Below, one piece after another: positions 15,906 to 35,723 of a stretch of DNA of 64,000 bases. The stretch is taken from contig CAYZYX010000002.1 of assembly GCA_964482715.1 (NCBI GenBank), positions 10,816 to 74,815 of the forward strand, written 5' to 3'. Position 1 is the first letter of the stretch. Every line of letters begins with the position of its first letter. The translations under genes were made by a program, and so were the position numbers. Below the pieces are notes generated by a model. That model was not told where the DNA came from, searched no databases, and saw nothing but the letters and a program-made list of their open reading frames with translations. This stretch comes from an uncultured Clostridia bacterium. GTDB lineage: Bacteria > Aerophobota > Aerophobia > Aerophobales > B3-G15.

Positions 15906-16901
15906 TTAGCTTTTTCCCATCAATTTATCGATGTATGCTTTGGCTTCTTTAACTGCCATGGGGTGGCGCATAATGAGAATGTCTGCACCAGCCTGAAGGT
16001 AAACTACAGCAGTGGTCAACTCCCAGAGAGGCCCTCTTTTACGATGATCTCCCCATTCTGGAACGTTCTGTTCAGGTGCGATAGCCTCTTTTACTTTCCA
16101 AACTTCTTTTCCTATGTCTCCAAGGATAGGCATTGCCCACATTTTATCTCCTCCTAATCCAGCAATACGTCCTCTTTCCATAATAGAATAAACATATTCG
16201 ATTCCATATCCAAGAGCACCAGTAGTAGGATAAATAACAATATCCTCAGGACTTAACCCAGCATCAGTTGCCAGAATGTTGACCTGTTTGGCTATGTTTA
16301 TATCAACCGGGGATTCAGCAATTACTTTGTGTTTATCAGCCTGACACAAAGCTACAAGAGTTTTATAGTTATCTTCAGTGATGGTTCCCAGCAGACATCT
16401 TTCACCAGCTGCTGCCTGAGAACAGGCAGGGAATATTTCATTGTCTTTATCTTTATTTCCACAGCCCCATATAATAAGGGGAACACCTACTGAATTTAAA
16501 ACTCTTTTCACTGCCTCCTGAGCGTGATTAGCATCTTTGTTTTCTCCATCCGGGTCACAACCCTGTAGCCTTAAACAGATAAGGTCTGCCCCAAATTCTT
16601 CCACACATTTTTTGGCCCATTTTCCGGGATCGTCCCAGACATCAGAGAAATTTTCAGCCAGTGTCTCAGGCCAGTCAGAAGGAGCAATATCCCAAACTTC
16701 CATAGCTATTACCGGGCGATGAGGAATGTCTCCTTCAAAGTAAAGATAGGGAAGAGTAGTGGCTCCTCCAATTGTGATTGTATGAGACCTTGTTCCTCCT
16801 TCTTCTCTGGTAGCTCCAATGGTTACCGTATTAATAGGATTTGGCCATTTTTGTTTAACATCGGGTATCTGCATTTTTTTCCCTCCTTTTAAACCCCTCA
16901 T
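15906..16901 (-). CDS. acsD: Corrinoid iron-sulfur protein small subunit (CODH/ACS delta, AcsD/CdhD)
   Basis: 331 aa TIM-barrel-type protein with no Fe-S cysteine cluster, in the conserved acsC...acsD-acsE order. Confidence 0.8.
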   Translation of the reverse strand: MRGLKGGKKMQIPDVKQKWPNPINTVTIGATREEGGTRSHTITIGGATTLPYLYFEGDIPHRPVIAMEVWDIAPSDWPETLAENFSDVWDDPGKWAKKCVEEFGADLICLRLQGCDPDGENKDANHAQEAVKRVLNSVGVPLIIWGCGNKDKDNEIFPACSQAAAGERCLLGTITEDNYKTLVALCQADKHKVIAESPVDINIAKQVNILATDAGLSPEDIVIYPTTGALGYGIEYVYSIMERGRIAGLGGDKMWAMPILGDIGKEVWKVKEAIAPEQNVPEWGDHRKRGPLWELTTAVVYLQAGADILIMRHPMAVKEAKAYIDKLMGKS

Positions 16902-16945: not shown

Positions 16946-17698
16946 CTACATATAGCCGGCCTTTTTCAGTATCTCTCTTATAGAAGAAAAAGCAGGCGAA
17001 TTTTGTGATAAATCAGTCAAAGATCGCCCATTCCAGGTATACTCTTCTAATTCAGGGTCATATTCTATCTTACCCAGGTAATTTCCAGAACTTTTAGCCA
17101 GCTTTTCCTTTTCTCTTTTAAACCTGTAGTTTCCCACAAGATATATGTTTTTATAACTAATTCCAACTTCAGAGGCGATTTTTTTAAGTCGCTCCATATT
17201 TTTTAAAGCTTTTACCGTAGGATCAATTATGACAAATATATCATCAACCTCAGAAACTATTCTTCTGTTAAGATGCTCCAGTCCCCCAGGTGAGTCAATA
17301 ATAGTGTATCTGTAACTTTCTGCCAGTTTGGGAAGAATACTCCTTAGGATATTGTTGGGCATGCAGTAGCAACCCTGAGTCCATTTTACCCCTATAGAAA
17401 TAAGGTCAAAATCTTCTGATTCATAGAGACAGGAGAAGTTCAGTAAGTATTCTATTTTTTCCGGTAAGCTTAGAGAATTTAATTCTTTGGTATTCTTCTT
17501 TTTTTGAATATCAAAAAGGATCTCCGAGATAGTCTTAATTTTTTCTTTTTCAAGATTTATTCCCAGCATGTCAGCCAGATTTTGATCTGAATCGGCATCA
17601 ATCAATAACGGATGTGAATCAAGACACAAAGCTGCCAGAGCTACAAAAGTAGTTTTACCTGTTCCCCCTCTTCCGGTACAGACAATTTTTCTACTCAT
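16946..17698 (-). CDS. CooC-type P-loop ATPase (second copy, AcsF-like Ni-insertion accessory protein)
   Basis: 250 aa with a deviant Walker A, CTGRGGTGKTT, in the MinD/CooC fold. Confidence 0.75.
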   Translation of the reverse strand: MSRKIVCTGRGGTGKTTFVALAALCLDSHPLLIDADSDQNLADMLGINLEKEKIKTISEILFDIQKKKNTKELNSLSLPEKIEYLLNFSCLYESEDFDLISIGVKWTQGCYCMPNNILRSILPKLAESYRYTIIDSPGGLEHLNRRIVSEVDDIFVIIDPTVKALKNMERLKKIASEVGISYKNIYLVGNYRFKREKEKLAKSSGNYLGKIEYDPELEEYTWNGRSLTDLSQNSPAFSSIREILKKAGYM

Positions 17699-19605
17699 TA
17701 TTTTATTTTCGCTGCCAGTGAGGGAAACTTTGTTATATCTGTGTGGGGTAAAAATTTTGCCGACATAAACTCATCCATATACAAAGGATAGGTGATTAAA
17801 TCAAAGTAGGTTATTCTTCTTGTTATTTCATAAGCCATTTCCAGTGCTTCCCAGGAGAAAAGAGCCATTTTGGCTCCCATAATTGAAGTGTTTCCTACAA
17901 ATTGGATTTTATCTCTATCTATATCAGGAATAAGACCTAAAAGAATAGCGTTTTCCTTATCAAGATAATTGCCAAACCCTCCAGCAATGTAAAGTCTATC
18001 AATATCAGAAAAAGTAAGATTTAAGCTGTTTAAGAGAATGTTGATTCCGGCAAATATTGCCGCTTTAGCTCTTAGAAGATTTTCAAGATCAGGTTGAGTT
18101 ACCACAATATCTTCCCCACGGTCAGTTTGATAAGCAGGGACAAGAAGAAATTCCAGTTCCCCATTTCTTTCCCTTACTCTTCTATCAGTTCCAGGTTGAA
18201 GTCGACCAGATCTGTCAATATATCCGGCCTTAAATAGTTCTGCTACAATGTCTATCAATCCGGATCCACATATACCTCTTGGTTTGACATCACCAATGGT
18301 AGTATACTTTATCTTTCCCTCCTCAGTTATATGAAGTCTCTCTATTGCTCCTTCACCTGCTCGCATTCCGTTTTTAACCCCACTTCCCTCAAAGGCCGGT
18401 CCTGCCGAAGCGGAACAGCAAACCATCCAATCCTTGTTTCCGATAACGATTTCTCCATTTGTTCCTATGTCTATTAACATAACAAGTTCACCGGCCTGGT
18501 AAATTCCTGTGGCCAGAATTCCGGCGGTAATGTCGGCACCTACCCAGGCAGCTATACTGGGCAGGCTATAGAGAAGTCCACGAGGGTTTATTCTTATTCC
18601 AACTTCGGCTGCCCTTATGGGGGGAGGAGCAGTACACACAGGTATGTAAGGCTCTTTTCTGATCTGAGAAGGATCAAGACCCAATAAGAAATGGATCATA
18701 GCTGTGTTACCGGCACAAACCACAGCCATTACATCATGTAGCCGTATATTGTTGCGGGAAATTAAAGTATTGATTAAATTGTTAATGTCCTCCACAATAG
18801 CCTCTCGAAGTCTATCTGTCCCTTTATGTTCGGCATATATTATCCTTCTTGTAACTTCCTCTCCATATACCCTCTGGGAATTATAGGTGGCTTCAGCATC
18901 CATGGTTTCTGAAGTATTTAGATTAACAAGATGAGCGACAACTGTAGAAGTTCCGACATCTACTGCTATGGCAAAATTTTTATCTTTTGTATTCCCCTTT
19001 TCTACCTGAATTACCTCAACTGTTCCTCCTCTAATTCCCAGAGTGGCAGTGACTTTCCAGTTATATTCTCTTAAAATATAAGGGATGGACCTTATTATTT
19101 TGAGTCCGGTTTGCATAATGGGAATTTCCTTTTTTCTTCTTATACCCCGGTAAAGTCGGAGGTGATCGCATACATTATCCTGCAAAGTGGGTGGAGGAAG
19201 TTCAAGATAGAGCTTCTGGATGAGAGGCTCATAGGTAAAATAGACTTTTTCCTTTAAAGGGGCATATAGGGCTCTAAACCTCTGGGCATCCTTATCTATA
19301 AGTATTTTTCCTTCCGCAGTTGATTCAGGAGGAACTTCCACAACCACATCACCAATTACTTCCGTCTGACAGGCAAGGACATATCCTTTTTTTATATCAT
19401 CACGGGAAAGAAGAGTTGTTGGCCTTGTTTTAACTTCACCCTCTCTCACAATCAATCGGCACTTACCACAGATTCCATCACCTCCACAGATGGAGTTGAT
19501 GTACACACCGGCCTTTTCTGCAGCTTCAAGTAACGTTATACCCTTTTCCACTTCAACTGTTTCTTTTTGAGGAAGAAAGGTTACCTTAATTTTTTCTTTT
19601 TTCAT
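17698..19605 (-). CDS. Reductive activator of the corrinoid protein (RACo-type: N-terminal [2Fe-2S] ferredoxin plus ASKHA ATPase)
   Basis: 635 aa. N-terminus carries the plant-type [2Fe-2S] motif CGGDGICGKC. The large C-terminal domain is sugar-kinase/Hsp70-like, with the same architecture as Carboxydothermus RACo. Confidence 0.75.
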   Translation of the reverse strand: MKKEKIKVTFLPQKETVEVEKGITLLEAAEKAGVYINSICGGDGICGKCRLIVREGEVKTRPTTLLSRDDIKKGYVLACQTEVIGDVVVEVPPESTAEGKILIDKDAQRFRALYAPLKEKVYFTYEPLIQKLYLELPPPTLQDNVCDHLRLYRGIRRKKEIPIMQTGLKIIRSIPYILREYNWKVTATLGIRGGTVEVIQVEKGNTKDKNFAIAVDVGTSTVVAHLVNLNTSETMDAEATYNSQRVYGEEVTRRIIYAEHKGTDRLREAIVEDINNLINTLISRNNIRLHDVMAVVCAGNTAMIHFLLGLDPSQIRKEPYIPVCTAPPPIRAAEVGIRINPRGLLYSLPSIAAWVGADITAGILATGIYQAGELVMLIDIGTNGEIVIGNKDWMVCCSASAGPAFEGSGVKNGMRAGEGAIERLHITEEGKIKYTTIGDVKPRGICGSGLIDIVAELFKAGYIDRSGRLQPGTDRRVRERNGELEFLLVPAYQTDRGEDIVVTQPDLENLLRAKAAIFAGINILLNSLNLTFSDIDRLYIAGGFGNYLDKENAILLGLIPDIDRDKIQFVGNTSIMGAKMALFSWEALEMAYEITRRITYFDLITYPLYMDEFMSAKFLPHTDITKFPSLAAKIK

Positions 19606-19618: not shown

Positions 19619-20968
19619 TTATTTATTTTTTACCTTCCACTCATTCTTGAGAAAACTGGGAATTCTGGCTGCTTCCTCGGGACCGACCAGTACTTTCCAG
19701 TTAAATTCTTCCTCCAGTTCCGCTCTAAAAACAGCCACCAAACCGGGAATGATAATAGTATTGTGGTTTACCTTTTCCTTTACCCTTTGCTCTTCAAGTG
19801 TTTTGGCTATCTTCTCAGGCGACCATTTGTCACCAGCATAAGCATTTAAAACTCCCAGTCCCTCCGTCTCCACAACAGAGATATAAGTTGGGACCTTACT
19901 ATTTTCTACTTCCGACTCCACTGTAAAGTAGGTAAGAGAAAAGTTTGTGGTAACAATGACCGGAGAATCAGGTGTTACCGCTCCTATTTCGTAGAGTTTG
20001 GCCTCTACAGCATTGGGAACCTGAGGATCTGTGTAGATGTTCTGTCTAATTGTTAGAAGAGGTAAAAGTTGCCATTTTTCCTTTGCTCTTAAAACCACGA
20101 TATTCGCATATTTACAGACATAAGTTGCAGCCTGAGCAATTTCTTGAAAAGGATTATTTTCATCCGTGAAAGCTATGGTCGGGTAGCCTAAGGGACGAAA
20201 GACTTTCTCTACCGCAAGTCTTCTTAGCCTGGTTAGTTCGGTTAGAGTTTTTCCCACTTTTCTTGTACCTGGATCAAGAACAAGGTCATTTACACCCAGA
20301 TTTTTGATTTTCTGAGTCAGATCAGCAAGCTCTTCCAGACTTTCAGCATAAACTGCAAGAGGACAGTTATAATTCTTAGCCAAGGAGGCAAATTTCTCAA
20401 AATTATCTCTCTTGGCTGCGTAAATAAGTGGTTTTTTATTTCCTACTGTTTTAAGAGCAGCTTCCACAACAGAGGGGTCATCTGAAACAAGAATAAGAGC
20501 AAGTCCCGTTTTCTCGCTAACCAGACCCGCCAGTTTTGCATAATCTTCAGGACCCTTTGAAGTATGTTTTAAAGCTACAAGATTTACTCCTATTTCTTCT
20601 CCAACTCTGGTAAATTTCAAACAAGCAATAGCATTTAGCTCCTGATTCAATTTTTCTTCTTCAAAATTGTCTTCCATTAGAATAGCAATGCCAGCCGGAT
20701 GATGGAATTTTTCTTTATGTCTGAAAAGGACTGTTTCCTGACCTACCTGAATCTTACTGCCATCAGTCCCAATAGTGACAAGCCTCATGGGAGGTGCTGA
20801 GGCCTCTGCAAGTTGCTTTTTGGCCTCTTCACTTACATGAGGACACTGATCAAGAGATACCTTTTTTGCCGCAAGTTGCATTGCAAAAGCCATACAGGTA
20901 GGGAAATTACAATCTCCACAGTTTGTTTTAGGTAAAAGTTTATAAATTTGAAGTCCGGTTAAGCCCAT
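19619..20968 (-). CDS. acsC: Corrinoid iron-sulfur protein large subunit (CODH/ACS gamma, AcsC/CdhE)
   Basis: 449 aa. N-terminal [4Fe-4S] motif CGDCNFPTCMAFAMQLA...CPHV, then TIM-barrel and B12-binding-like domains. Confidence 0.85.
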   Translation of the reverse strand: MGLTGLQIYKLLPKTNCGDCNFPTCMAFAMQLAAKKVSLDQCPHVSEEAKKQLAEASAPPMRLVTIGTDGSKIQVGQETVLFRHKEKFHHPAGIAILMEDNFEEEKLNQELNAIACLKFTRVGEEIGVNLVALKHTSKGPEDYAKLAGLVSEKTGLALILVSDDPSVVEAALKTVGNKKPLIYAAKRDNFEKFASLAKNYNCPLAVYAESLEELADLTQKIKNLGVNDLVLDPGTRKVGKTLTELTRLRRLAVEKVFRPLGYPTIAFTDENNPFQEIAQAATYVCKYANIVVLRAKEKWQLLPLLTIRQNIYTDPQVPNAVEAKLYEIGAVTPDSPVIVTTNFSLTYFTVESEVENSKVPTYISVVETEGLGVLNAYAGDKWSPEKIAKTLEEQRVKEKVNHNTIIIPGLVAVFRAELEEEFNWKVLVGPEEAARIPSFLKNEWKVKNK

Positions 20969-21016: not shown

Positions 21017-23233
21017 TTACATCAATGGTGGCATGGAGAGAACTGGATGATTTTTTTTCTGAAGGAATTCCAGAAGTTCCTCGGAGGTAGTTGCCTCTTT
21101 TTCAGTGGCAATTTTCTCTATAAGATCTGGTTCTCCTATTTCTTCACATCTTTTTTGCAGTTTTTCTTTTATTTCCTCTTTGAGTTCACTGGGCATCCAG
21201 ACAACCCTTTTTAAACCCCCGTCAGCTGATATGAATTTTCGGCTTGTAATGTACATTTTACCAATTCCTATAAATCCAGGTGTTTGTACTCCTCCTCCCA
21301 CCTGTCCTGCCATAGTACTGAAAGTCATCCCTATAGGAGTCATTCCGGTGAATTCACGATTCACAATCATAACTCCATTTGCCTCAGGTAAAACGGCTGC
21401 AATACACTCAAAGCACCCACAGGAAGTCATAGGGTCCTCAAGAATAGAATAGGCATTGAATCTTTCCAGATTACCATTAGATTTTACCTTAAGATATTCG
21501 TTAACTCCCTCCCATTGACCTTTAACAGGATCAAGGCATCTTCCCTTTTTTACAGGTTCGTTAGGTCCATGGGGATTAATCTGATAGGATGCTTTACAGT
21601 CAAGCCAGGTATAAGCTCCACATAAGCCCAGTCTTTCTGGAGTCACTATACATACATGATTGGGTGCATAGGATTGACAGAGAATACAGCTATAAAACTC
21701 ATCCACATCTTCATCTGTCATCCCGCCCAATCTTTCATCTCTTTGATGGTAGATCTTTTTTGCTTCTTCAAGAGGCTCCTTTATCTTTTCTTCGTCAGTT
21801 ATTATCTTAACCTGAACCTTGTCCACGATACCGGGAAATTCATCATGCATTTTAGCTACCAGTATTTCTCCAAAATGCTTTAACCTGAAACCTTTATGAT
21901 AGGCTTCTTTACTTATTCTTATCCAGACAATAGCTCTCTGACCCATATGAAATATTCCATTGGCACAGGATAAAAACTCATGGATTCTTCGCTCAAGAAC
22001 AGTCTCAAAATCTTCACTGAAGTTCCGACCGGCAACCTCAACTAAAATTCCTAAATTATAAGCGCCACCTTCTTCCATCTGATCAACATCAGGACCGATT
22101 ATCTCAATTTTGCCATCTTCTACCTCATTCATTGGTTTTCCCCGTAAAAGTTCAAAAGCTATACCGCGTTTTCCTCCAAATTCAACCTGCATCTGCTCTT
22201 TTCTTACTCTCTCACCTTCAAATCCAGCACCGTAAGGAACAGGTATGGGGATCTCTGTTACCTTTATTTCCAGACCTCTAACTTCGATAGCTTTGCCAAC
22301 TATTTTATCCAGAGCAATATTGGAAACAACATGCTCATAGGTACAAATACCAGTGGGTAAAATCTGAGGAATGGCAACGTCAGAAAGGATAGGGAAGCCA
22401 AAATTAATTGCCCCTGCGGCAGTGGCATATTTTTCATCGGTGATAAGTTGTTTATTGCCATTTACTTCTGGGTCAGCTCCCAGAGCAAGAACGAAGGCGT
22501 GGACTCTTTCTTTATTGTAGAGAAGAATTTTCCTTGCCTGCTCAAGATCCCCTGGTTTTATTCCACCAAAAGTCATAGCTGCACGAGCTGCAAAATTTAA
22601 AGCATGAATGGCAGCCGATGTATCTTTGCCATAAGGGACGAGAAAGGTATCCCAGTTCATTTCAATTCCTTCTTGAGCAAGTTGCTCAGCCATACTCCTT
22701 CCACCGGAAGAAGAAGCCATAAATACCAGAATGTTTTTCTCCTGCAGGGCTCTTGCAAGTTCAACTGCCTGTTCATTAGTGGGAAGTGCTCCCACGCAAG
22801 CAGCAAAACCCGGCATTCTTCCGTCTACAAGTTTTATTCCCTGATTTCTCAAAGTGGCATCGTCAGTGAAGCCCAACCATATCCCCTTAGGTTTATCGCC
22901 AGTAAGGTATTTTAAAGCTTCAATTATCTCCTCAGCAATTAAGGTTGCAATTCCTGCATCAAGGGTATCTCCCAGATAAGGAACCCAGAGGCTTTCCGAA
23001 GGAACAGGAGGAAGAAGTTTCTTAGCCCACTCCAGAGCTTTTTTTGCATCAGCTAATGTTTCAACCTTTATGCCGGTAAGAGCCAAAATTAAAGGCAGAT
23101 AATAGGCAGTATTTGGAAATCCTATGGCCTCTTTTTCACCTTTTTCTTCAATTAGTCTGTTTAACTTTTCCTCAGCTTCCTTTACGTACTTATAGGCTCC
23201 CCTTATAGCTGCAGAGGCAATTATTCTGGACAT
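21017..23233 (-). CDS. acsB: Acetyl-CoA synthase catalytic subunit (CODH/ACS alpha, AcsB/CdhC)
   Basis: 738 aa with the A-cluster Cys-Gly-Cys signature (SCGCFECIA) and a conserved N-terminal region. Confidence 0.9.
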   Translation of the reverse strand: MSRIIASAAIRGAYKYVKEAEEKLNRLIEEKGEKEAIGFPNTAYYLPLILALTGIKVETLADAKKALEWAKKLLPPVPSESLWVPYLGDTLDAGIATLIAEEIIEALKYLTGDKPKGIWLGFTDDATLRNQGIKLVDGRMPGFAACVGALPTNEQAVELARALQEKNILVFMASSSGGRSMAEQLAQEGIEMNWDTFLVPYGKDTSAAIHALNFAARAAMTFGGIKPGDLEQARKILLYNKERVHAFVLALGADPEVNGNKQLITDEKYATAAGAINFGFPILSDVAIPQILPTGICTYEHVVSNIALDKIVGKAIEVRGLEIKVTEIPIPVPYGAGFEGERVRKEQMQVEFGGKRGIAFELLRGKPMNEVEDGKIEIIGPDVDQMEEGGAYNLGILVEVAGRNFSEDFETVLERRIHEFLSCANGIFHMGQRAIVWIRISKEAYHKGFRLKHFGEILVAKMHDEFPGIVDKVQVKIITDEEKIKEPLEEAKKIYHQRDERLGGMTDEDVDEFYSCILCQSYAPNHVCIVTPERLGLCGAYTWLDCKASYQINPHGPNEPVKKGRCLDPVKGQWEGVNEYLKVKSNGNLERFNAYSILEDPMTSCGCFECIAAVLPEANGVMIVNREFTGMTPIGMTFSTMAGQVGGGVQTPGFIGIGKMYITSRKFISADGGLKRVVWMPSELKEEIKEKLQKRCEEIGEPDLIEKIATEKEATTSEELLEFLQKKNHPVLSMPPLM

Positions 23234-23244
23234 GCACGACCTCC

Positions 23245-24024
23245 TTAAGTTCTATGCAATGTAGTAGTTTCTTTAGTTACCCTAAGCTTATCCTTTAAAA
23301 TCTCTCTCCTGCAATCAGGACAGAGATTTAAAAATTCCTGTAGTTTTTCTATCTTTTCATTTCTGGCTTTCACATAATCAACCATTGCTTTAGTAAAAAA
23401 ATATCTCCCACATCTTTCACACCTGACTCTTTCCAGTTTGCGTGACCACATATCTATTTTTCTCTTATCTTCAATATCTTCAATCTTTATTGCTCCAGTG
23501 GGACATACTACAGCACAGGCTCCACATCCAATACAGGTATCTGGCTCAATCTCAAATGGTGTGGTAACTTTTCTCTCCAGTCCTCTACTGGCAAATCCAA
23601 TGGCATTTGCTCCTATAACCTCACTACAAACACGCACACAGAGACCACAGAGGATGCATTCTTTATCTTCCTGTGGAAATCTAACTTTATCAAGCCCCAT
23701 CTCTCTGGCTAATTCTTGAATAGCTTTGACATTTGGACAGCGTGCAAGGAGCATTTCAATAATTAACCTTCTTGCCTTTATGACTTTTTCTGAATTTGTT
23801 TTTACTTCAATTCCGTCTTGAACCGGATAAGTGCAGGCAGCGGTTAGTCGAGACCACCCTTTGCGGATAACCTCAACTGTGCAAACTCTACAGGCACCAT
23901 ACGCACTTACGGCCGGGTGATAACAAAGAGTTGGTATTTTAACCCCAATCCTTTTTGCTGCTTCAAGAACTGATAGTCCTTCTTCCACTTCAACCTCTTT
24001 TCCATCTATGACCAGTTTAACCAT
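23245..24024 (-). CDS. HoxU/NuoG-N-terminal-like iron-sulfur protein ([2Fe-2S] plus [4Fe-4S] clusters), with no catalytic domain
   Basis: 259 aa. [2Fe-2S] motif LCYHPAVSAYGACRVCTVEV, followed by the His-ligated cluster region and CIGCGACAVVCP. Confidence 0.75.
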   Translation of the reverse strand: MVKLVIDGKEVEVEEGLSVLEAAKRIGVKIPTLCYHPAVSAYGACRVCTVEVIRKGWSRLTAACTYPVQDGIEVKTNSEKVIKARRLIIEMLLARCPNVKAIQELAREMGLDKVRFPQEDKECILCGLCVRVCSEVIGANAIGFASRGLERKVTTPFEIEPDTCIGCGACAVVCPTGAIKIEDIEDKRKIDMWSRKLERVRCERCGRYFFTKAMVDYVKARNEKIEKLQEFLNLCPDCRREILKDKLRVTKETTTLHRT

Positions 24025-25944
24025 TTATTCCACCTTTATAGCATCAAATTTGCAGGTTTCGTAACATATCCCGCATTTTACACATTTTTCCTGCAATATG
24101 CGATGAGGTTTTCTCCTCTCTCCAACTATGGCTTCCTGAGGACATTCTCTGGCACAGCGGGTACATCCGGTACATTTTTCCTGATCTATTGTATAGGTTA
24201 TAAGGTCACGACAAACTCGAGCTGGACACTTTTTATCTTTAATATGAGCTTCATATTCATCTCTGAAGTAGCGAATAGTAGTTAAAACAGGGTTGGGAGC
24301 AGTTCCTCCTAAAGCACACAGGGAAGTGCTTTTAACAACTTCAGATAATTCTTCAAGCAGCTCTATATCTTCCTCTTTTCCCTCACCCTGGGTTATCCGG
24401 TTAAGAATTTCCAGCATTTGTTTTATACCTTCTCTACAGGAAGTACACTTTCCGCAGGATTCATCTTTAAGAAAAGTGAGAAAATATTTTGCCACATCCA
24501 CCATACAAGTATCCTCATCCATAACGATCATTCCACCTGATCCCATCATAGACCCTACTTTGGTAAGTGCATCAAAATCTACCGGGAGGTCAAGAAAATT
24601 CTCAGGTATGCATCCTCCAGAAGGACCACCTGTTTGAACAGCCTTAAATTTTTTTCCTCCAGGTATTCCACCTCCGATATCAAAGATAATTTCTCTCAAA
24701 GTTATGCCCATAGGGACCTCTGCGAGACCTGTATTGTTGATTTTTCCAACAAGAGAAAAGATCTTTGTTCCTTTACTTCCCTCTGTGCCTATTTTAGAGT
24801 ACCAATCAGCTCCCCGGGCAATGATTACCGGAACATTGGCCCAGGTTTCCACGTTGTTAAGGTTGGTAGGCTTTTCCCAGAGTCCACTTTCTACCGTATG
24901 GATGTGTTTTGCTCGTGGCTCTCCAACTCTTCCTTCCAGAGAGGCCATTAAGGCTGTTGACTCACCGCAAACAAATGCACCCCCCCCTCTATTAACTCTA
25001 ATGGAAAAACTAAACCCTGAACCTAAAATATCCTCACCTAAAAGCCCGTATTCCTCAGCTTGTTTAATAGCAATACTTATATGTTTTACAGCCAGTGGAT
25101 ATTCATTCCTAACGTATATATATCCTTCTCTGGCTCCAATTGCATAAGCTCCAATAATCATACCTTCCAGTATACTATGAGGATCACCTTCGAGAATACT
25201 TCTATCCATATAGGCACCAGGATCTCCTTCATCAGCGTTACAGATAACATATTTTACGTTACCTTTGGCCTGGCGACAGTACAACCATTTTTTACCAGTA
25301 GGAAAGCCTCCTCCACCCCTTCCTCTAAGACCTGATTTGATAATCTCCTCTATAACCTGGTCAGGTTCGTATTGAGAAAGAACTTTGAAGAGAGAGTAAT
25401 AACCTCCTCGTGCTACGTACTCAATCACATTAGTAGGATCAATGAAACCACAATTCCTGCTGGCGATTCTGAATTGTTTGCAGTAGAAAGGTATCTCTTG
25501 AAGAAGAGGGATATCATCTATCACACCTGATAACTCCCCCTGTATATCATATTTCTTTGTCTTACCAAAAATAAGAAGTTCATCTCTATCCAGCCTGGCA
25601 AGAATACTATCTTTCCATATACTTTCCCTGGTCAGGCTTTCTAAAAGTTTAATAACTTTTTCACCGTTCATCTTTTGATAAATAATACGAGGCCATCCAG
25701 GTTTAAATACGTCCACCAGAGGCTCTATTTGACAATAACCTAAACATCCAGTAGGAACTATTTTAATGTCTATTCTGTTTTCTCTAACTTTCGTATTTAG
25801 CGCCTCAAAAACTTCATTAGCTCCTGAAGCCAACCCACAGGTAGCCATCCCAATCATAATTCTTGGTTTATCGGGATAAAGAGATTTTAAACCCTCTTTC
25901 CTTAACTCTTCAAGTTCTTTTAAACTTTTGATTTTTTTACTCAT
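24025..25944 (-). CDS. NAD(P)H-binding flavoprotein (NuoF/HoxF/HndC-like) with N-terminal thioredoxin-like [2Fe-2S] domain and C-terminal 2x[4Fe-4S]
   Basis: 639 aa. GLRGRGGGGFPTGKKW is the FMN/NADH site. C-terminal CTGCTRCARECP and CVKCGICYETC. Confidence 0.85.
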   Translation of the reverse strand: MSKKIKSLKELEELRKEGLKSLYPDKPRIMIGMATCGLASGANEVFEALNTKVRENRIDIKIVPTGCLGYCQIEPLVDVFKPGWPRIIYQKMNGEKVIKLLESLTRESIWKDSILARLDRDELLIFGKTKKYDIQGELSGVIDDIPLLQEIPFYCKQFRIASRNCGFIDPTNVIEYVARGGYYSLFKVLSQYEPDQVIEEIIKSGLRGRGGGGFPTGKKWLYCRQAKGNVKYVICNADEGDPGAYMDRSILEGDPHSILEGMIIGAYAIGAREGYIYVRNEYPLAVKHISIAIKQAEEYGLLGEDILGSGFSFSIRVNRGGGAFVCGESTALMASLEGRVGEPRAKHIHTVESGLWEKPTNLNNVETWANVPVIIARGADWYSKIGTEGSKGTKIFSLVGKINNTGLAEVPMGITLREIIFDIGGGIPGGKKFKAVQTGGPSGGCIPENFLDLPVDFDALTKVGSMMGSGGMIVMDEDTCMVDVAKYFLTFLKDESCGKCTSCREGIKQMLEILNRITQGEGKEEDIELLEELSEVVKSTSLCALGGTAPNPVLTTIRYFRDEYEAHIKDKKCPARVCRDLITYTIDQEKCTGCTRCARECPQEAIVGERRKPHRILQEKCVKCGICYETCKFDAIKVE

Positions 25945-25957
25945 ACGGTTTCTCTTA

Positions 25958-26425
25958 CTATCGCTCTTTGTATTTGTTTAGGATTTTCTCAACCTGAACC
26001 GGGGTTACTCTTGCAAAGTAATTGCCATCAACTACCACAAGAGGTCCCAATGCGCAGGCTCCCAGACAGTTCACTGTTTCTAAAGTAAAATTAAGATCAG
26101 GTGTAGTTTCTCCCGGTTTGATATCTAACTTCCTTTGAATCTCTTCAAGAATTTTCGGTGATCCTCGTACATGGCATGCTGTTCCCATACACACATATAT
26201 GGTATGTTTACCTCGAGGTTTTAAACTGAAAGCTTTATAAAAAGTGGCTACTGCATAAATTTGAGGTAAAGGAACATTTAATTTGTCTTTTACTCTAAGT
26301 AATGCCTCCCGGGGCAAGTAATTATATTCTCGCTGTATATCCTGAAGAATGGGAATAAGCATACTTTTATCTTTATGGTATTTATCAATAACCCTATCGA
26401 CTGTTTCCAAAACTTGTGGACTCAT
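25958..26425 (-). CDS. NuoE/HoxE/HndA-like [2Fe-2S] thioredoxin-fold subunit
   Basis: 155 aa with CMGTACHVRG ... CLGACALGP. Confidence 0.8.
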   Translation of the reverse strand: MSPQVLETVDRVIDKYHKDKSMLIPILQDIQREYNYLPREALLRVKDKLNVPLPQIYAVATFYKAFSLKPRGKHTIYVCMGTACHVRGSPKILEEIQRKLDIKPGETTPDLNFTLETVNCLGACALGPLVVVDGNYFARVTPVQVEKILNKYKER

Positions 26426-26954
26426 TTTCTCTTATCCTTGCAGTTTTTTCTTCACTTTTTATCAAGCTTACCAGGAACCTCTCCTTCTTTTCTTTGGTGA
26501 CTTTTTCTACTTCCATAAATTGAAGTGCTCCGGTAGGACATGCTTCCACACAGGCAGGTTTTAATCCCTTCTCCGTTCTCTCTTTGCAGAGATCACACTT
26601 CACAATAGCTTTCCCATCTCTTCTTATTTTAATGACACCAAAAGGACAAACCAGAATACACCACTTACAACCTATACAGAGTTCGTCATTCAAGCTTACA
26701 GGACTATCAGGAGAAGATTTTTGAAGAGCATGTGTAGGACAAACCGAGACACAGGGAGCATCTTCACAGTGTCTACACTGAAGAGGGATAGTAAAATCTT
26801 CCAGAGTTTCCACCTCAACCCTGTGCTGGGGAAGGGGTGTTTCAGTTAGAGATTTGATTAAATCTTTAGACTGAGAGTGTTCAACGGCACAGGCAAGTTC
26901 ACAACTTCTACACCCAAGACATTTTTCGGCAAAAACAACCAGAATCTTTTTCAT
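26394..26954 (-). CDS. cooF: CooF-like poly-[4Fe-4S] ferredoxin (CODH electron-transfer subunit)
   Basis: 186 aa with four CxxCxxCxxxC(P)-type motifs. Lies directly downstream of cooS. Confidence 0.7.
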   Translation of the reverse strand: MKKILVVFAEKCLGCRSCELACAVEHSQSKDLIKSLTETPLPQHRVEVETLEDFTIPLQCRHCEDAPCVSVCPTHALQKSSPDSPVSLNDELCIGCKWCILVCPFGVIKIRRDGKAIVKCDLCKERTEKGLKPACVEACPTGALQFMEVEKVTKEKKERFLVSLIKSEEKTARIRENESTSFGNSR

Positions 26955-26974: not shown

Positions 26975-28885
26975 TTACTGGTACATTAAAGGTTTTAACT
27001 TCAAGGCCTCTCTTTTTTTATCAATATGTTTTATCATAAGATGAGCTGCTTTAATGGGATCAGACTCAAAGGCAAATTTTCCACCCACCAGTTCTTCCAG
27101 CTCTTCACAGATAAATCTGGTTAGATTTTTACTTCCCAGAATTGGAAAGGGAAAACCAAGAACAGTGAAAACACCTGAAGCAACAAAGTAAAATCCTATG
27201 GATACGGCTTTTTCGCTCATCCATTCAGGAGCAGCTCCTGCCACTGGTAAGTCACTTATATCTTCTCCCAGGCCTCCCTCGTGAACAACATTTGTTAGAG
27301 CTATCAGAATTCTACTGTTATCCACACAGGAACCTACATGAAGTACCGGAGGAATTCCTACAGCTTCACATACTTCTTGAAGCCCTTTTCCTGCATATTT
27401 GAACACAGATTCTGGCTGTAAGAGCCCTGCCTTAGCATTGGCTATTGCGGAACAACCAGTTACTACAACTAAAACATCATTTTTGATAAGTTCCTTTACC
27501 ATCTCCGTATGTCCATAATCGTGAGTAATCTTGGGATTATTACATCCGACCACTCCAGCAAGTCCTCTAATTCTACCCTGGATGATAGCATCATTTAAAG
27601 GTCTGTAGGTGGCTCTATAGGTTCCTCCCAGAAATCTGTAAATATTCTCGGCACAAAACCCTGCAATAAGGTCTTCATTCTCTTCAGGAATATAGACCTC
27701 ATTATTATTCCGATTGGAAAAGTTTTCTATAGCCATTTTTAAAATATCTTTGGCAATCTGGTAAGCATTTTCCTCCTTGAACTCTACATGTTCTACTCCC
27801 GGAAATTTACATTTTGGAGAAGTAGTGATAAGTTTGGTGTGGAAACCATTGCTGTTAATTACACTACTTAGTGAAGGCATTATACATTGAACATCCACCA
27901 TCATTAAGTCAACAGCCCCTGTTAAAATGGCAAGTTCCTGTTGCAAGAAATTTCCGGCTACAGGGATTCCATGGCGCATCAAGATTTCGTTGGCAGTACA
28001 ACATATTCCTACAAGATTTACCCCTTTGGCTCCTTTTTTTCTGGCAAGTTCAACAATTTCTGGATCTTTAGCAGCGAAGGTAACCACATCTGAAAGAGTA
28101 GGCTCATGTCCATGAACTACTACATTAACCTCTTCTCTGGACAAAGTACCAAGATTCACTTTTCCTCTCAGGGGTTTAGGACTGCTAAATAAAACATCGG
28201 AAAGATCGGTGGCAATCATTGAACCTCCCCAGCCATCGGCAAGAGCACACCTTAAACCATGCATGATAATATTTTTGTAGTCATTATCCACTCCCACATG
28301 GGTACGATGCATCATTTCCACGATTTCTCGATCAACACCTCGAGGCACAATTCCAAGTTCTCTCCAGACTTTTACTCTTTTTTTTGGTGCCCTGAGAGGC
28401 ATTCTTAGCTCACCATGTTGATTTCCAAACTCAGCCAGTATTTTTTCTGCAAGCTCTTTAGCTATTTCATTTGTTGCTCTTCCATCGGTTTTGACCTGGT
28501 ATTCTTTAGCCAGGATTTTCATTTTTTCTTCGTCTTTTATCTTGTAGGCATCGGCCTTACCTTCACTTGCCAATAACAGAGCATGGGTGATGTCTCTTCC
28601 GTGGTCAGAATGTGCTGCTGCACCTCCTGCAATCATCCTTGCCAGATTTCTGGCAGCTATGGTATCAGCACTTGCTCCACATATTCCAACCCGCTCTTCT
28701 TCAGCAAAAGGATCTATTCTACAGGGACCCATATTGCATATACGGCAGCAAAGCCCTAATTTTCCAAAACCACACTGGGGTTGCATGGCTTCACAACGAT
28801 CCCAGACGAGGCTAACATTATTCTCCTCTGCCCTTTCTATTACACGTCTACTTGCTTTATCAACGGTTCTTTTATCTGCCTTCAT
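26975..28885 (-). CDS. cooS: Anaerobic carbon-monoxide dehydrogenase catalytic subunit (CooS/AcsA)
   Basis: 636 aa. N-terminal cysteine array CGFGKLGLCCRICNMGPCRI (the B/D-cluster region) and a conserved hydroxylamine-reductase-like fold. Confidence 0.9.
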   Translation of the reverse strand: MKADKRTVDKASRRVIERAEENNVSLVWDRCEAMQPQCGFGKLGLCCRICNMGPCRIDPFAEEERVGICGASADTIAARNLARMIAGGAAAHSDHGRDITHALLLASEGKADAYKIKDEEKMKILAKEYQVKTDGRATNEIAKELAEKILAEFGNQHGELRMPLRAPKKRVKVWRELGIVPRGVDREIVEMMHRTHVGVDNDYKNIIMHGLRCALADGWGGSMIATDLSDVLFSSPKPLRGKVNLGTLSREEVNVVVHGHEPTLSDVVTFAAKDPEIVELARKKGAKGVNLVGICCTANEILMRHGIPVAGNFLQQELAILTGAVDLMMVDVQCIMPSLSSVINSNGFHTKLITTSPKCKFPGVEHVEFKEENAYQIAKDILKMAIENFSNRNNNEVYIPEENEDLIAGFCAENIYRFLGGTYRATYRPLNDAIIQGRIRGLAGVVGCNNPKITHDYGHTEMVKELIKNDVLVVVTGCSAIANAKAGLLQPESVFKYAGKGLQEVCEAVGIPPVLHVGSCVDNSRILIALTNVVHEGGLGEDISDLPVAGAAPEWMSEKAVSIGFYFVASGVFTVLGFPFPILGSKNLTRFICEELEELVGGKFAFESDPIKAAHLMIKHIDKKREALKLKPLMYQ

Positions 28886-29651
28886 AATGTTTCTCCTTTA
28901 ATTTTTCAGCAATGGCCTCTATTTCCTTTCGGAAATTACTGCTTTTTCCCCAGAAAGAAACACCTTCTATATCTGCCTGAAGTATTGCGTCGTCAAAACT
29001 TAGAAATCCTAAAAAATCAAAATCGGAAAGACTTTTCAAAAGGTAGCTTTTATCTTTTTTGTCTCTTACCTTATTGCCCACAACACTAACATTTTGGATA
29101 TTTAACTGGAAAGAGAGGTTCCTGATTCGAAAGGCTGTTTCTACACTTTTTTTGCCTGGTTCAACAACAACTATCAATTCATCTACTCCCTGTGCTGTTC
29201 CTCTACCAAGATGCTCTATTCCTGCTTCCATGTCAATTATAACAATTTCCTCTCTTTCCAGAAAAAGATGGGTAAGAAGTGCTCTTAAAAAGGCATTTTC
29301 TGGACAGGTACAGCCCATTCCCCCACCTCTTACGGTTCCCATAACAGCAAGTTTTATCCCGTTGTGCTGCACGAAGTATTTGTCGGGAATATCATCCACT
29401 CTGGGATTTAATTTGAAAAAAGAAGATAAATTTCCAGGTTTTGCTCCGGTTCGATCCTCGATTAGTTTTTTCATTTCAATCAGGGGAGTTATACTGGAAG
29501 GCTCAGGAAAAGAAAGGGTGAAGGCAAGGTTTGCATCGGGGTCAGCATCAATAGCAAATACCCGCTTTCCTTTGTCGGCAAAATACTTACATAGACCAGC
29601 AGTAAGAGTAGTTTTGCCTACCCCTCCCTTACCTGTAACTGAAATTTTCAT
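28872..29651 (-). CDS. cooC: CooC, CODH nickel-insertion ATPase
   Basis: 259 aa. Walker A GKGGVGKTT, MinD/ParA fold, CxC motif (GCTC), first gene of the locus. Confidence 0.85.
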   Translation of the reverse strand: MKISVTGKGGVGKTTLTAGLCKYFADKGKRVFAIDADPDANLAFTLSFPEPSSITPLIEMKKLIEDRTGAKPGNLSSFFKLNPRVDDIPDKYFVQHNGIKLAVMGTVRGGGMGCTCPENAFLRALLTHLFLEREEIVIIDMEAGIEHLGRGTAQGVDELIVVVEPGKKSVETAFRIRNLSFQLNIQNVSVVGNKVRDKKDKSYLLKSLSDFDFLGFLSFDDAILQADIEGVSFWGKSSNFRKEIEAIAEKLKEKHYEGR

Positions 29652-29701: not shown

Positions 29702-29730
29702 AGTATAATAAAAGTAAATCTGACTGTCAA
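29702..29730 (-). promoter_or_regulatory. Sigma-70-type promoter of the cooC-cooS-acs operon
   Basis: Minus strand has TTGACA, a 17-nt spacer and TATACT, about 50 nt upstream of the cooC ATG. Confidence 0.5.
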
Positions 29731-30454: not shown

Positions 30455-31252
30455 TTAAACAGAAAGTATCGCATTTAAAATCATAAAAACTGCAGCTATA
30501 AGTGTAGAATAGGCAAAGATATGTTTTAATTTTTGTGGTTTAGTTTTGATAGAAAAATTACCCCCAATTATCCCTCCTAATATAGCTATGATTGCCAGCG
30601 GAATTGCTCTAATGGAGTTAAAATCACCCCTTATAGAGTGTCCTAAAAATCCCATTAGGGCAGTTACAGCCACCATAGCTGAAGAGGTTCCCACAGCAAT
30701 TCGCACAGGTACACCACAAATAAGAACCATCAAAGGAACCTTAAATGACCCTCCAGATATTCCTACCATACCTGCTACAAATCCAGTTGCAGCAGTTACT
30801 GGAATTGCTGACCAGAGGTTGACTTTATACTCATATTCACCGTATTTTCTTAACCAGCACCCAAAGCATTTTTTTTGTTTAATAATACTATTACCTCCAA
30901 CAGGTCGGAGCATTAAAAAACCTGAAAGAACTAATAACCCACCAAAGATAAATTTCAGTAGTGTAGTTCTAAAGAGATGAGCATAGTAGCCCCCTATGAA
31001 AGCCATAATGTCAGTGGGTGGGTCTATAACTAATGCGAGTTTCCAATCTACAGTCCTATGTTTCTGAAAAATTAACATAGATGATATTGAAGTAGCTACC
31101 AGAATAAGTTGGGCATCAGTAGCTGCCTGGTATATTGGAATTCCACTTGCTATTAGTAATGGAACATAGAAATTACCTCCACCTCGCCCTGTCATAGCCA
31201 TAACCACAGCAATAATGAATATACCTGCACCAATAGCGATAATATTAATCAT
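30455..31252 (-). CDS. TauE/SafE-family (DUF81) membrane transporter
   Basis: 265 aa with about 8 transmembrane helices and glycine-rich TM motifs. An atypical cytoplasmic-loop insertion, KQKKCFGCWLRKYGEYEYK, is present. Confidence 0.7.
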   Translation of the reverse strand: MINIIAIGAGIFIIAVVMAMTGRGGGNFYVPLLIASGIPIYQAATDAQLILVATSISSMLIFQKHRTVDWKLALVIDPPTDIMAFIGGYYAHLFRTTLLKFIFGGLLVLSGFLMLRPVGGNSIIKQKKCFGCWLRKYGEYEYKVNLWSAIPVTAATGFVAGMVGISGGSFKVPLMVLICGVPVRIAVGTSSAMVAVTALMGFLGHSIRGDFNSIRAIPLAIIAILGGIIGGNFSIKTKPQKLKHIFAYSTLIAAVFMILNAILSV

Positions 31253-31264: not shown

Positions 31265-32842
31265 CTAAAAGTACATTTTTTCAGCTACCAGATAAACAAA
31301 GTCCTTTTCTCTCTCGTTGGGCTTAATGTGTTCTACTTTCCTGGCTATAAGTTCGGCATCCTTTCTTTTATCCTTAGATAAAAGCATTTGCCTTGCTCCA
31401 GCTAAAGCTCCATTACCAATTTTGACTATTTTATCCTTTGCGTTTGGCAAAAGACCTATTGTTATAGCATTTTCTGAATTAATAAAATTTCCAAAAGCCC
31501 CAGAAAGATAGATCTTGCCAATATCTTCAAGACCAACTCCGTAATATTTCATAAGGAGATCTTGATCCACTCTTAGACCAGCTTTTGCGGTTATGAGTTG
31601 GTAGATATCCTGTTGAGATATACTTATATCTTTAGTAATAAAAAAATCTTCTTTTAACTTTGCCTTTTTACTCATTATACCATTCTTCAGTAATTCGCTC
31701 AGAAGGTCTATCAAACCAGAACCACATATGCCTATAGGGGGTTTACCGCCAATAGTCTCGTACTTAACCTCGCCATTTAAAATTTTTACATTTTTTATTG
31801 CTCCCTCCACCGCTCCGACACCGCATTTTACAGTAGCTCCTTCATAAGCTCCTCCAGCAGCACAGGAAGCACTCATAATCCTGTATTTATTACCAATAAC
31901 CACCTCTCCATTAGTTCCAATGTCTATGATCATTGATGGGACTTCATTTTTGTATATCCCGGTAGTAATAATATTGGCCAGAGCATCTGCTCCAGCATGA
32001 CCACCGATTAGAGGTGCACCATAAACATTTGCCCCTGGATTTATTATTAAACCCATCTCCTCGGCCCTTCTATTTACAGCCCCGGGTTCTAAAGGCTCAA
32101 AAGGAATTACTCCCAGTGAAGAAACATCAATTCCAAAAAAGATATTGCGCATTGTAGGATTCCCGACCACCACTACTTCATATATACACTGGAGAATATC
32201 TTCTTTCTGACCGGCAAAGTTTTTTAATTCTTGATTTATTCCATCAATTATCACTTTCTGTAATTGCCTCAGCCCATTTTTATTTCTCATTGTGTAATCA
32301 ATGCGTGAGATAACGTCGTCTCCAAACAAACTCTGAGGATTCTTGTCAGCCAGAGTAGCTATTATTTTTCCTGACTGAAGGTCAACGATCTGAGATACCA
32401 GGGTAGTGGTCCCCACATCTATAGCAAGTCCATAAATTTTTCCCCTAAATTTGTCAATTTGTTTATCTTGGTGAAATACTTTACCATTTTTTTCATAAAC
32501 CAGAGGATTTAAGCTTACTCTATCTTTTAGACTTCGAGAAAGAATACTATACTTACCCGGACTTTTAATAAAGACACGAATACTTCCCGATCCACTAATT
32601 TTTGCCTGGCAGGCAAGCCTTTCATCTTCGCTTAAATTAAATTTTTTTTCCGCAACAGTTTTTGGGGATAATAGATATCTCTCACCTTCTATTCTCACTA
32701 TACATCTGCCACAAAGACCCTGCCCTCCACATTCAGACGGTATCTGTACTCCCAGTTTTCTGGCAACCTCCAGAATAGTTCCCTGGTTGAATTCAATTCC
32801 TTCTCTTCCCTTTTTAAACTGCGGAAAAAAAATAATTGCCAT
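31265..32842 (-). CDS. Second RACo-like protein ([2Fe-2S] ferredoxin domain plus ASKHA/DUF4445 ATPase domain)
   Basis: 525 aa. N-terminal ECGGQGLCGRC [2Fe-2S] motif. Same architecture as the gene at 17698..19605, but the two sequences are diverged. Confidence 0.65.
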   Translation of the reverse strand: MAIIFFPQFKKGREGIEFNQGTILEVARKLGVQIPSECGGQGLCGRCIVRIEGERYLLSPKTVAEKKFNLSEDERLACQAKISGSGSIRVFIKSPGKYSILSRSLKDRVSLNPLVYEKNGKVFHQDKQIDKFRGKIYGLAIDVGTTTLVSQIVDLQSGKIIATLADKNPQSLFGDDVISRIDYTMRNKNGLRQLQKVIIDGINQELKNFAGQKEDILQCIYEVVVVGNPTMRNIFFGIDVSSLGVIPFEPLEPGAVNRRAEEMGLIINPGANVYGAPLIGGHAGADALANIITTGIYKNEVPSMIIDIGTNGEVVIGNKYRIMSASCAAGGAYEGATVKCGVGAVEGAIKNVKILNGEVKYETIGGKPPIGICGSGLIDLLSELLKNGIMSKKAKLKEDFFITKDISISQQDIYQLITAKAGLRVDQDLLMKYYGVGLEDIGKIYLSGAFGNFINSENAITIGLLPNAKDKIVKIGNGALAGARQMLLSKDKRKDAELIARKVEHIKPNEREKDFVYLVAEKMYF

Positions 32843-34779: not shown

Positions 34780-34783
34780 AATC

Positions 34784-35230: not shown

Positions 35231-35272
35231 TTTGCCTGTCCTTAAATTGATCTTAGAGCTGTGCTATTTCAA

Positions 35273-35722: not shown

Positions 35723-35723
35723 C

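Follow-up and report, generated by a model that had tools for sequence, protein, structure and literature searches.

What are three genes for NuoE-, NuoF- and NuoG-like proteins doing between the genes for carbon monoxide dehydrogenase (CODH) and acetyl-CoA synthase (ACS)? The question is raised by an operon on contig CAYZYX010000002.1, from an uncultured bacterium of the Aerophobota, of which we analyzed one stretch of 64 kb (the window); all partner searches covered this window. The step from CO2 to CO is the most demanding reduction of the Wood-Ljungdahl pathway, and energetic accounts of the pathway usually assume that it uses reduced ferredoxin only. Judged by its sequence, the trio is a BfuABC (HydABC-type) electron-bifurcating core, type 2, here without a catalytic domain of its own. 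We consider it probable that this core is plugged onto the Ni-CODH via the polyferredoxin CooF, and that it bifurcates electrons between nicotinamide adenine dinucleotide (NAD(H)) and ferredoxin.

The operon lies on the minus strand in the order cooC, cooS, cooF, bfuC, bfuB, bfuA, acsB, acsC, acsV, acsF, acsD, acsE, and its genes are tightly packed from cooC to acsB (intergenic spacing of -32 to +20 nt). The trio consists of bfuC (25958-26425; NuoE/HydC-like, PF01257, E 3e-53), bfuB (24025-25944; 639 aa, NuoF/HydB-like, PF01512 at E 4e-44 and PF10589 at E 3e-35) and bfuA (23245-24024; 259 aa, a [2Fe-2S] domain matching PF13510/PF00111 and two [4Fe-4S] motifs). Upstream of it, cooF (26394-26954) encodes a CooF-like polyferredoxin of 186 aa with 16 Cys and four [4Fe-4S] motifs. 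The original prediction, made from the sequence alone, had placed such a trio between cooS-cooF and acsB and had seen no catalytic hydrogenase gene beside it. Both statements held: the Pfam and NCBIfam family matches are unambiguous, and the operon contains neither an H-cluster domain nor a HoxH or HoxY gene. The range of 23245-26954 that it gave to three genes does enclose the trio, but it holds four open reading frames (ORFs), cooF included.

BfuB and BfuC have the anatomy of bifurcating enzymes

As predicted, BfuB combines an N-terminal thioredoxin-like domain (residues 1-170, 25435-25944; Cys C36, C67 and C71), a flavin mononucleotide (FMN)/NAD(H) domain, and two C-terminal [4Fe-4S] motifs in a ferredoxin-like domain (residues 584-639, 24028-24195; Fer4 dicluster match). 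Compared with solved structures in the PDB, BfuB scored 608-765 bits against the B subunits of bifurcating or presumed bifurcating enzymes (NiFe-HydB 7T2R_B, 765 bits; 9BOV_B; StnB 8OH5_B; NfnB 9N5U_B; HydB 8A6T_B, 7Q4V_B and 7P5H_B; WorB 9MQX_B), but only ~350-400 bits against the non-bifurcating NuoF/Nqo1 of complex I (~390 bits for Nqo1) or FdsB. BfuC is a thioredoxin-like subunit with [2Fe-2S] Cys at C79, C84, C120 and C124, and its best PDB matches were 7T2R_C (NiFe-HydC), 8A6T_C (HydC) and 9MQX_C.

A check suggested with the original prediction was to look in the NuoF-like protein for the extra cysteines of bifurcating HydB/HndC-type subunits, and these are present. BfuB residues H567, C480, C573 and C578 align to the B2/Zn-site residues H525, C438, C531 and C536 of 7T2R_B, and eight further Cys lie in the C-terminal domain. 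According to Schut et al. (2022, PMC9304861), nearly every BfuB sequence keeps this His and these Cys, which non-bifurcating homologues lack. T518 occupies the position of C476 in NiFe-HydB of Acetomicrobium mobile (7T2R_B), a situation shared by about two thirds of BfuB sequences (PMC9304861). Across six CODH-linked BfuB homologues from different phyla, C480/H567/C573/C578, the B1 ligands C497/C500/C503/C543 and the eight C-terminal Cys were invariant. The cofactor-ligand anatomy of this subunit and its homology to solved bifurcating enzymes are directly observed. We propose that the C-terminal 2x[4Fe-4S] domain, with clusters B3 and B4, is the site at which ferredoxin reacts.

The domains by which Schut et al. 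(2022) recognize Bfu proteins were searched for through the Pfam counterparts of the InterPro entries. BfuB has the Nuo51 FMN domain (IPR011538), the NuoF [4Fe-4S] domain (IPR019575) and the 4Fe-4S ferredoxin-type domain (IPR017896), BfuC has the NuoE-type domain (IPR002023), and BfuA has 2Fe-2S and 4Fe-4S domains; the three genes are adjacent.

Three other family assignments were rejected. The label of a HoxEFU-like diaphorase, under which the trio had first been described, does not fit the models: HoxE (NF005747) gave 159 bits against a cut-off of 224 and HoxU (NF005745) 132.9 against 333, the window has no HoxYH, and among solved structures the nearest are those of HydABC/Bfu enzymes. For an N-module of complex I, NuoF (TIGR01959) reached 489.5 bits against 558.65 and NuoG (TIGR01973) 103.6 against 470, the genes stand in an acs operon, and one NuoE model was barely above its cut-off (145.7 against 141). 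For an [FeFe] HydABC hydrogenase, NF040763 gave 152.7 bits against 765 and matched residues 2-97 only, in a BfuA that ends at residue 259.

BfuA and CooF resemble the plug and polyferredoxin of WorABCSL

BfuA residues 2-249 matched WorA (9MQX_A; E 1e-54, 41% identity), which is 247 aa long and serves as the A subunit in WorABCSL, a bifurcating tungsten aldehyde oxidoreductase (PDB 9MQX; PMC12318220). Alignment of 24 BfuA homologues showed 16 invariant Cys, namely the ligands of [2Fe-2S] cluster A1 (C34/C45/C48/C64), those of two [4Fe-4S] clusters (C123/126/129/133 and C164/167/170/174), and C202/C205/C235/C238. BfuA contains no motif for the His-ligated A3 cluster (HxxxCxxC) of HydA/NuoG, no A5 and no catalytic domain. 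Alignment and model place a zinc finger, formed by the last four of these Cys, and a terminal helix at the C-terminus (23257-23421). In an AlphaFold2 model with a mean predicted local distance difference test score of 86.5, the terminal helix comprises residues 236-256. The top PDB fold match of this model was again 9MQX_A, with template modelling (TM) scores of 0.80/0.84 over 247 columns, compared with a TM score of 0.59 for the N-terminal region of T. kivui HydA and 0.53 for 5XF9_B, the HoxU-type subunit of an NAD+-reducing [NiFe] hydrogenase.

The solved enzyme indicates what such a subunit does. In WorABCSL, the four C-terminal Cys of WorA bind zinc. The terminal helix of WorA is where the polyferredoxin WorS docks; WorS is a fixed subunit and bears the catalytic WorL. 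Cluster S4 of WorS lies 10.7 A from A4, and electrons pass S4-A4-A2-A1 into the BC core (PMC12318220). The terminal helix is missing from a BfuA homologue (P0083, locus L090) linked to pyruvate oxidoreductase (Por), which agrees with the prediction of Feng et al. for Por-Bfu (PMC12318220).

CooF residues 1-162 matched WorS (9MQX_E; E 3e-27), and CooF also matched HycB4, the filament-forming protein of hydrogen-dependent CO2 reductase (E 1e-28). Its Cys pattern and a C-terminal KEKKxxFLV helix motif are kept in 8 CODH/ACS-linked CooFs, in an alignment read without the row of the Planctomycetota locus L037. We propose CooF as the wire between CooS and BfuA.

The module accompanies CODH/ACS genes in several phyla

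The trio had been taken for an insertion specific to one lineage. This was not borne out, as the layout is found in Omnitrophota, Chloroflexi and Planctomycetota as well as in Aerophobetes. The closest named relatives of BfuA come from Candidatus Aerophobetes (74% and 58% identity), and loci L001-L004, from two Aerophobetes lineages, have the order cooC-cooS-cooF-bfuC-bfuB-bfuA-acsB(-acsC). The same order was found in a metagenome contig (L005), in an Omnitrophota metagenome-assembled genome (MAG; L006), where it directly follows fhs-fchA-folD-metF, in a Chloroflexi MAG (L007), and, with ~2 kb inserted, in a Planctomycetota MAG (L037). The genes are rearranged elsewhere, as bfuB-bfuA-cooS-acsB-acsC in Phycisphaerae (L017) and as cooC-cooF-bfuC-bfuB-bfuA-cooS-acsB-acsC in a further metagenome contig (L088). 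The conserved linkage is an observation, and an adjacency that outlasts permutation of the gene order is good evidence for functional coupling. Together with the WorA-type plug and the WorS-homologous CooF, this cross-phylum linkage to cooS, cooF and acsB supports the wiring to CODH through CooF that the original prediction had drawn from gene position.

An independent line comes from the Bathyarchaeia. In MAG contig CAYGJP010000013.1 (L022:9367-11811), one 814-aa protein joins a complete BfuB to CdhB, the epsilon subunit of CODH/ACS (PF02552), within the gene order cdhA, BfuA::FrhB-like fusion, BfuC, BfuB-CdhB fusion, cdhC, cdhD, cdhE. The BfuB-CdhB fusion was present in at least 27 sequence clusters (P0121-P0146, P0148; 65-100% identity, ~813-825 aa), and all of those with a source name are from Bathyarchaeota. 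This fusion argues that Bfu cores join CODH/ACS physically.

Plug-type BfuA proteins also occur with other catalytic partners. Among the matches listed, they stand with aldehyde oxidoreductase (AOR) and WorS in L091 and several further loci, and with Por in L090. The surroundings of L091:8001-11159, where the plug-type BfuA lies beside WorS and AOR, lack both bfuB and bfuC, and at L089:5083-8759 a cooF-bfuC-bfuB-bfuA cluster stands by itself, away from any catalytic gene. The sequences suggest that plug and polyferredoxin may be exchanged as separate modules. One locus of the Firmicutes type was recovered, in Desulfosporosinus (L038), with the order cooF-cooS-cooC-bfuCBA and no acs genes.

The relatives differ in several details. 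BfuB has two N-terminal forms, a longer one with three Cys (the window, L001, L003 and L007) and a canonical one with four (L005 and L006). In Planctomycetota (L037, also L025 and L035), ~2 kb separates cooF from bfuC; in L037 this insert (3987-5989) was considered as an extra oxidoreductase and rejected, as it contains a PAS-domain ORF and a 398-aa ORF without a Pfam match. The AcsB proteins of L003:9764-13690 (Aerophobetes Ae_b3a) and L005:8821-12660 are ~1300 aa long and contain an intein with a LAGLIDADG homing endonuclease (PF14890, PF14528); the window AcsB (738 aa) has no intein.

Relation to published predictions

Schut et al. (2022) defined the Bfu family and included a hypothetical Codh-Bfu, based on four Firmicutes sequences (PMC9304861). 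The known cases are Acetohalobium arabaticum and Clostridium cellulovorans, and also Sporomusa silvacetica (PMC9304861, PMC12318220). In A. arabaticum and C. cellulovorans the codh genes are flanked by bfuB on one side and bfuA on the other, no link to ACS is mentioned, and BfuB belongs to clade 49 (PMC9304861). Feng et al. (2025) predict an enzyme CodhABCSF in which CooF replaces WorS (PMC12318220), and Inoue et al. (2019) recorded NuoE/F/G-like COGs, uninterpreted, in the Wood-Ljungdahl context group of Ni-CODHs (PMC6344411). By its sequence, the window module is of this already predicted kind, Codh-Bfu/CodhABCSF. Within the literature library searched, we found no description of bfuCBA between cooS-cooF and acsB, nor of a bifurcating CODH/ACS, and a 2026 paper on the genomic context of CODH does not mention NuoE/F/G-like genes. 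The acs-operon setting, the occurrence in four or more bacterial phyla and the fusion of BfuB to CdhB in archaea appear to be undescribed so far.

Proposed mechanism and energetics

The CODH in question is encoded by cooS (26975-28885; Ni-CODH catalytic subunit, TIGR01702, 687 bits against a cut-off of 478), and its best PDB matches were 6T7J_B (739 bits) and the CODH of Clostridium autoethanogenum CODH/ACS (6YTT_B, 679 bits). The acetyl-CoA synthase gene acsB (21017-23233; NF040764, 1049 bits) encodes an N-terminal CODH-binding domain (PF18537). As cooS is the only one in the operon, AcsB has a CODH-binding domain and CooS resembles 6YTT_B, this is most likely the CODH of a CODH/ACS.

From these features we infer that a complex forms, that it bifurcates, that it is linked to ACS and in which direction it runs. 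Electrons released at the C-cluster of CooS would pass through its B and D clusters to the four [4Fe-4S] clusters of CooF, and from there through A4-A2-A1 of BfuA to the FMN and neighboring clusters in BfuB and BfuC. At that point the flow would divide: NAD+ would be reduced at the FMN site, and ferredoxin at the C-terminal 2x[4Fe-4S] domain of BfuB. The overall reaction would be 2 CO + 2 H2O + NAD+ + 2 Fd(ox) <-> 2 CO2 + NADH + 2 Fd(red) + 3 H+, where Fd is ferredoxin. In the direction of CO2 fixation, NADH and reduced ferredoxin would jointly reduce CO2 to enzyme-bound CO (confurcation), which would halve the ferredoxin demand of the carbonyl branch; run in reverse, with acetyl-CoA being cleaved or trace CO oxidized, the enzyme would produce NADH and reduced ferredoxin.

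The published potentials are ~-280 mV for NADH, ~-500 mV for ferredoxin and -520 mV for CO2/CO (PMC9304861, Table 1). We calculated that the mean potential of NADH and ferredoxin, -390 mV, equals that of the CO2/CO couple at a CO/CO2 ratio of ~4e-5, which is plausible for CO channelled to the A-cluster. An argument from low concentration was likewise made by Schut et al. for Codh-, Por- and Wor-Bfu (PMC9304861).

Several points weigh against a bifurcating core plugged onto CODH. At standard potentials, CO (-520 mV) can reduce both ferredoxin and NAD+ without bifurcation, and the case that bifurcation is needed is an argument from low CO concentration. No Codh-Bfu or CodhABCSF enzyme has ever been purified (PMC12318220), so that bifurcation with CO is hypothetical. 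Within BfuB, the N-terminal domain lacks one of the four canonical Cys for [2Fe-2S] cluster B5, and the SLBB match (IPR019554/PF10531; 20.1 bits, E 6e-4) lies below the gathering score of 27. The BfuB proteins of the relatives show a likewise weak SLBB match, and the three-Cys pattern, GxxxCG...GCxGxC, is also that of StnB (8OH5_B), an experimentally bifurcating protein that binds a [2Fe-2S] cluster in its three-Cys N-terminal domain (PMC10482914). In a crude neighbor-joining tree of BfuB, which has no support values and gives a hint only, the CODH/ACS-linked sequences were not monophyletic but formed about four groups interleaved with Por-linked sequences, and BfuB of the Desulfosporosinus locus grouped with Wor-linked sequences, far from the CODH/ACS-linked ones. 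The L089 cluster, a cooF-bfuCBA set with no cooS alongside, indicates that CooF and a Bfu core can serve other partners. The profile search of contigs with the BfuA alignment supplies examples of the layout rather than frequencies; among the matches listed, HydA/NuoG-type relatives were numerous and loci from Aerophobetes or Omnitrophota absent. Finally, other partners are possible beyond the 64-kb window.

If a bifurcating module does belong to CODH/ACS, half the electrons for the reduction of CO2 to CO could come from NADH, at a lower cost in low-potential ferredoxin, and in reverse the energy of CO oxidation would be partly conserved as NADH and ferredoxin. More tentatively, and with less confidence than in the wiring of the window module itself, we suggest that a CODH/ACS-Bfu supercomplex may exist in Aerophobetes, Omnitrophota, Chloroflexi, Planctomycetota and, by way of BfuB-CdhB, Bathyarchaeia, and that their carbonyl branch may not be purely ferredoxin-dependent. 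For every two CO formed, such a supercomplex would consume one NADH and two reduced ferredoxins, with acetyl-CoA cleavage as the reverse. In energy-starved sediments, this would change the accounts of ferredoxin and ATP for both acetogenesis and acetate oxidation. The phyla that carry the module dominate energy-limited subsurface sediments and include no cultured acetogens, so the finding may bear on life near the thermodynamic limit. For the hypothetical Codh-Bfu class, the choice of candidates to purify also becomes much larger and more diverse.

Genes around the module

Unless stated otherwise, all features in this section are on the minus strand. Upstream of the module, a RACo-like gene (31265-32842) is followed by a gene for a TauE-family membrane protein (30455-31252) and then by cooC (28872-29651), which encodes a Ni-insertion ATPase for CODH of the CbiA/ParA family; cooC is directly upstream of cooS in related loci as well. 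Just upstream of cooC, a promoter-like site (29702-29730; TTGACA-17-TATACT, 11/12) is a candidate start of a cooC...acsE transcription unit, and a consensus scan found no terminator-like site on the minus strand from cooC to acsC. These promoter and terminator hits are consensus matches whose counts in the region did not exceed those in shuffled controls. Downstream of acsB, and identified from their translations, are acsC (19619-20968), RACo/acsV (17698-19605), cooC/acsF (16946-17698), acsD (15906-16901) and acsE (15096-15890), in an order that recurs, with Pfam labels on the genes there, in the Aerophobetes locus L001. A gene for a DRTGG/AAA_26 protein (14005-15099) comes after acsE. No second copy of cooS, bfuA, bfuB or bfuC was found in the 64 kb by tblastn; the only weaker second matches were the cooC/acsF paralogue and a CooF-like gene of the Mbh cluster described next.

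A cluster for an Mbh-type group-4 [NiFe] hydrogenase (1-13859) directly follows the acs operon. It encodes a large subunit (8314-9537; best PDB match 6CFW_L), NuoH/B/C/D-like subunits, three antiporter-like subunits and MbhD/E, and is preceded by genes for an AsrA-like Fe-S protein, an AsrB-like flavin adenine dinucleotide (FAD)/NAD(P) protein and a second CooF-like protein. A perfect sigma-70 consensus match lies just upstream of the cluster, at 13991-13964. The second [NiFe] hydrogenase, a group-1-like pair identified by PDB match (small subunit 57660-58532, large subunit 56099-57658), has a large subunit that scored 457 bits against the D. vulgaris [NiFeSe] enzyme and 122 bits against HydL of NiFe-Bfu. 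Both were examined as possible partners of the Bfu core, and neither is of the HoxYH or HydSL type. A HoxYH- or HndD-type partner gene had been named among the findings that would overturn the original prediction; no HoxYH gene was found in the window.

The group-1-like pair belongs to a region (54506-62478) in which a CbiM/CbiQ/ABC-type Ni/Co transporter precedes the pair, and metV (55378-56085) and metF (54506-55381) follow it. The pair stands immediately before these methylene-tetrahydrofolate reductase genes, with no hdr or mvhD between, which is an unusual arrangement. Upstream of the acs region, at 34303-37900, are MoaA-, MoaC-, MoaB/Mog- and MoeA-like ORFs, judged from translations alone; this molybdopterin-gene reading, if right, would fit a molybdenum or tungsten enzyme, such as a formate dehydrogenase, elsewhere in the genome.

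Alternative explanations

The interpretation offered with the original prediction was partly sustained: the wiring through CooF and the bifurcating option gained support, whereas the HoxEFU label and the lineage-specific insertion did not. Its other option was a simple, non-bifurcating CO:NAD(P)+ oxidoreductase, in which electrons would run from CooS through CooF and BfuA to a NuoEF-type diaphorase, as in HoxEFU-HoxYH or FdsBG-formate dehydrogenase. CO oxidation is exergonic enough for direct reduction of NAD+ (PMC9304861), and FNOR, another kind of NAD(P)H oxidoreductase, is a recognized context of Ni-CODHs (PMC6344411). The non-canonical three-Cys pattern of the N-terminal [2Fe-2S] domain of BfuB could also be read in this way, but bifurcating StnB shows the same pattern (PMC10482914). 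Unlike NuoF, HoxF and FdsB, BfuB keeps the C-terminal 2x[4Fe-4S] domain, the His/Cys site and the N-terminal domain, and does so across phyla, and the HoxE and HoxU models stay below their cut-offs. We therefore regard a simple oxidoreductase as unlikely; H567, C480, C573, C578 and the eight C-terminal Cys of BfuB favor the bifurcating NAD(H)/ferredoxin option.

CooF and BfuABC might instead form a free-standing redox hub, with no stable binding to CODH, that equilibrates NAD(H), ferredoxin and a polyferredoxin pool. The L089 cluster, which has neither cooS nor acsB as neighbors, and the combination of BfuA-type plugs with AOR, Por and CODH are what such a hub would lead one to expect. The scheme of Schut et al., however, gives the Bfu core three substrates, NAD(H), ferredoxin and a third one (PMC9304861), and would leave nothing to be coupled if no third redox partner of defined potential were bound. 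WorS in the solved homologue is a fixed subunit carrying WorL (PMC12318220), and the Bathyarchaeia BfuB-CdhB fusion favors a stable physical complex with CODH. A hub of this kind seems improbable to us.

Least credible of all, and very unlikely in our view, is a Bfu core that serves another catalytic partner (the Mbh group-4 or group-1-like [NiFe] hydrogenase, or a distant hydrogenase or formate dehydrogenase) and owes its place in the acs operon to co-regulation: the Mbh cluster is 9 kb downstream on the same strand, Mbh-Bfu clusters have been described by Schut et al. (PMC9304861), the best PDB match of BfuB is the A. mobile NiFe-HydB and our view is of 64 kb of a genome, but the Mbh cluster owns an NAD(P)/FAD module, a CooF-like protein and a perfect consensus promoter, the hydrogenase at 56-58.5 kb looks like a periplasmic group-1 enzyme (457 bits) rather than HydL (122 bits), a C-terminal helix lacking in Mbh-Bfu and Por-Bfu homologues is present in BfuA, and a hydrogenase partner is made unlikely by the absence from BfuA of A3, the contact of NiFe-HydA to HydS, and by the persistence of bfuCBA beside cooF/cooS and acsB in hydrogenase-free surroundings (L006, L007 and L088).

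Comparison with known systems

The bifurcating core that we propose to be plugged onto CODH resembles published Codh-Bfu/CodhABCSF in having BfuABC beside CooS and CooF, a BfuA without A3 and A5 and with a zinc finger and C-terminal helix, a CooF homologous to WorS, and a proposed coupling of CO/CO2 to NAD(H) and ferredoxin. It differs in gene order: cooS-cooF-bfuCBA stands directly before acsB in the window, and the order published for Firmicutes was not found here. WorABCSL of A. mobile (9MQX) corresponds to it subunit by subunit (BfuA to WorA, CooF to WorS, BfuB and BfuC to WorB and WorC), and in both a catalytic unit would feed a polyferredoxin that plugs into cluster A4, but a Ni-CODH dimer takes the place of the tungstopterin WorL, and the window CooF has an extra C-terminal tail of ~24 residues. 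With NiFe-HydABCSL (7T2R) and FeFe-HydABC (8A6T, 7P5H, 7Q4V) it shares the FMN site, clusters B1, B3 and B4, the His/Cys site and C1, whereas its BfuA contains neither an H-cluster domain nor A3 and its operon no HydSL.

HoxEFU is likewise a NuoE/NuoF/NuoG-N-like trio with FMN and Fe-S clusters, and its HoxU-sized subunit of ~240-260 aa is of similar length; in contrast, the C-terminal 2x[4Fe-4S] and N-terminal domains of the window BfuB are HydB-type traits, and HoxYH is missing. The closest comparison for the operon as a whole is with the Moorella-type acsA-acsB arrangement and the C. autoethanogenum CODH/ACS (6YTT), with which it has in common a CooS of the ACS-bound type, an AcsB that has the CODH-binding domain, and an otherwise canonical acs operon. 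Here, however, four genes, cooF and bfuCBA, separate those for CODH and ACS, which implies that NAD(H), and not ferredoxin alone, is a co-substrate.

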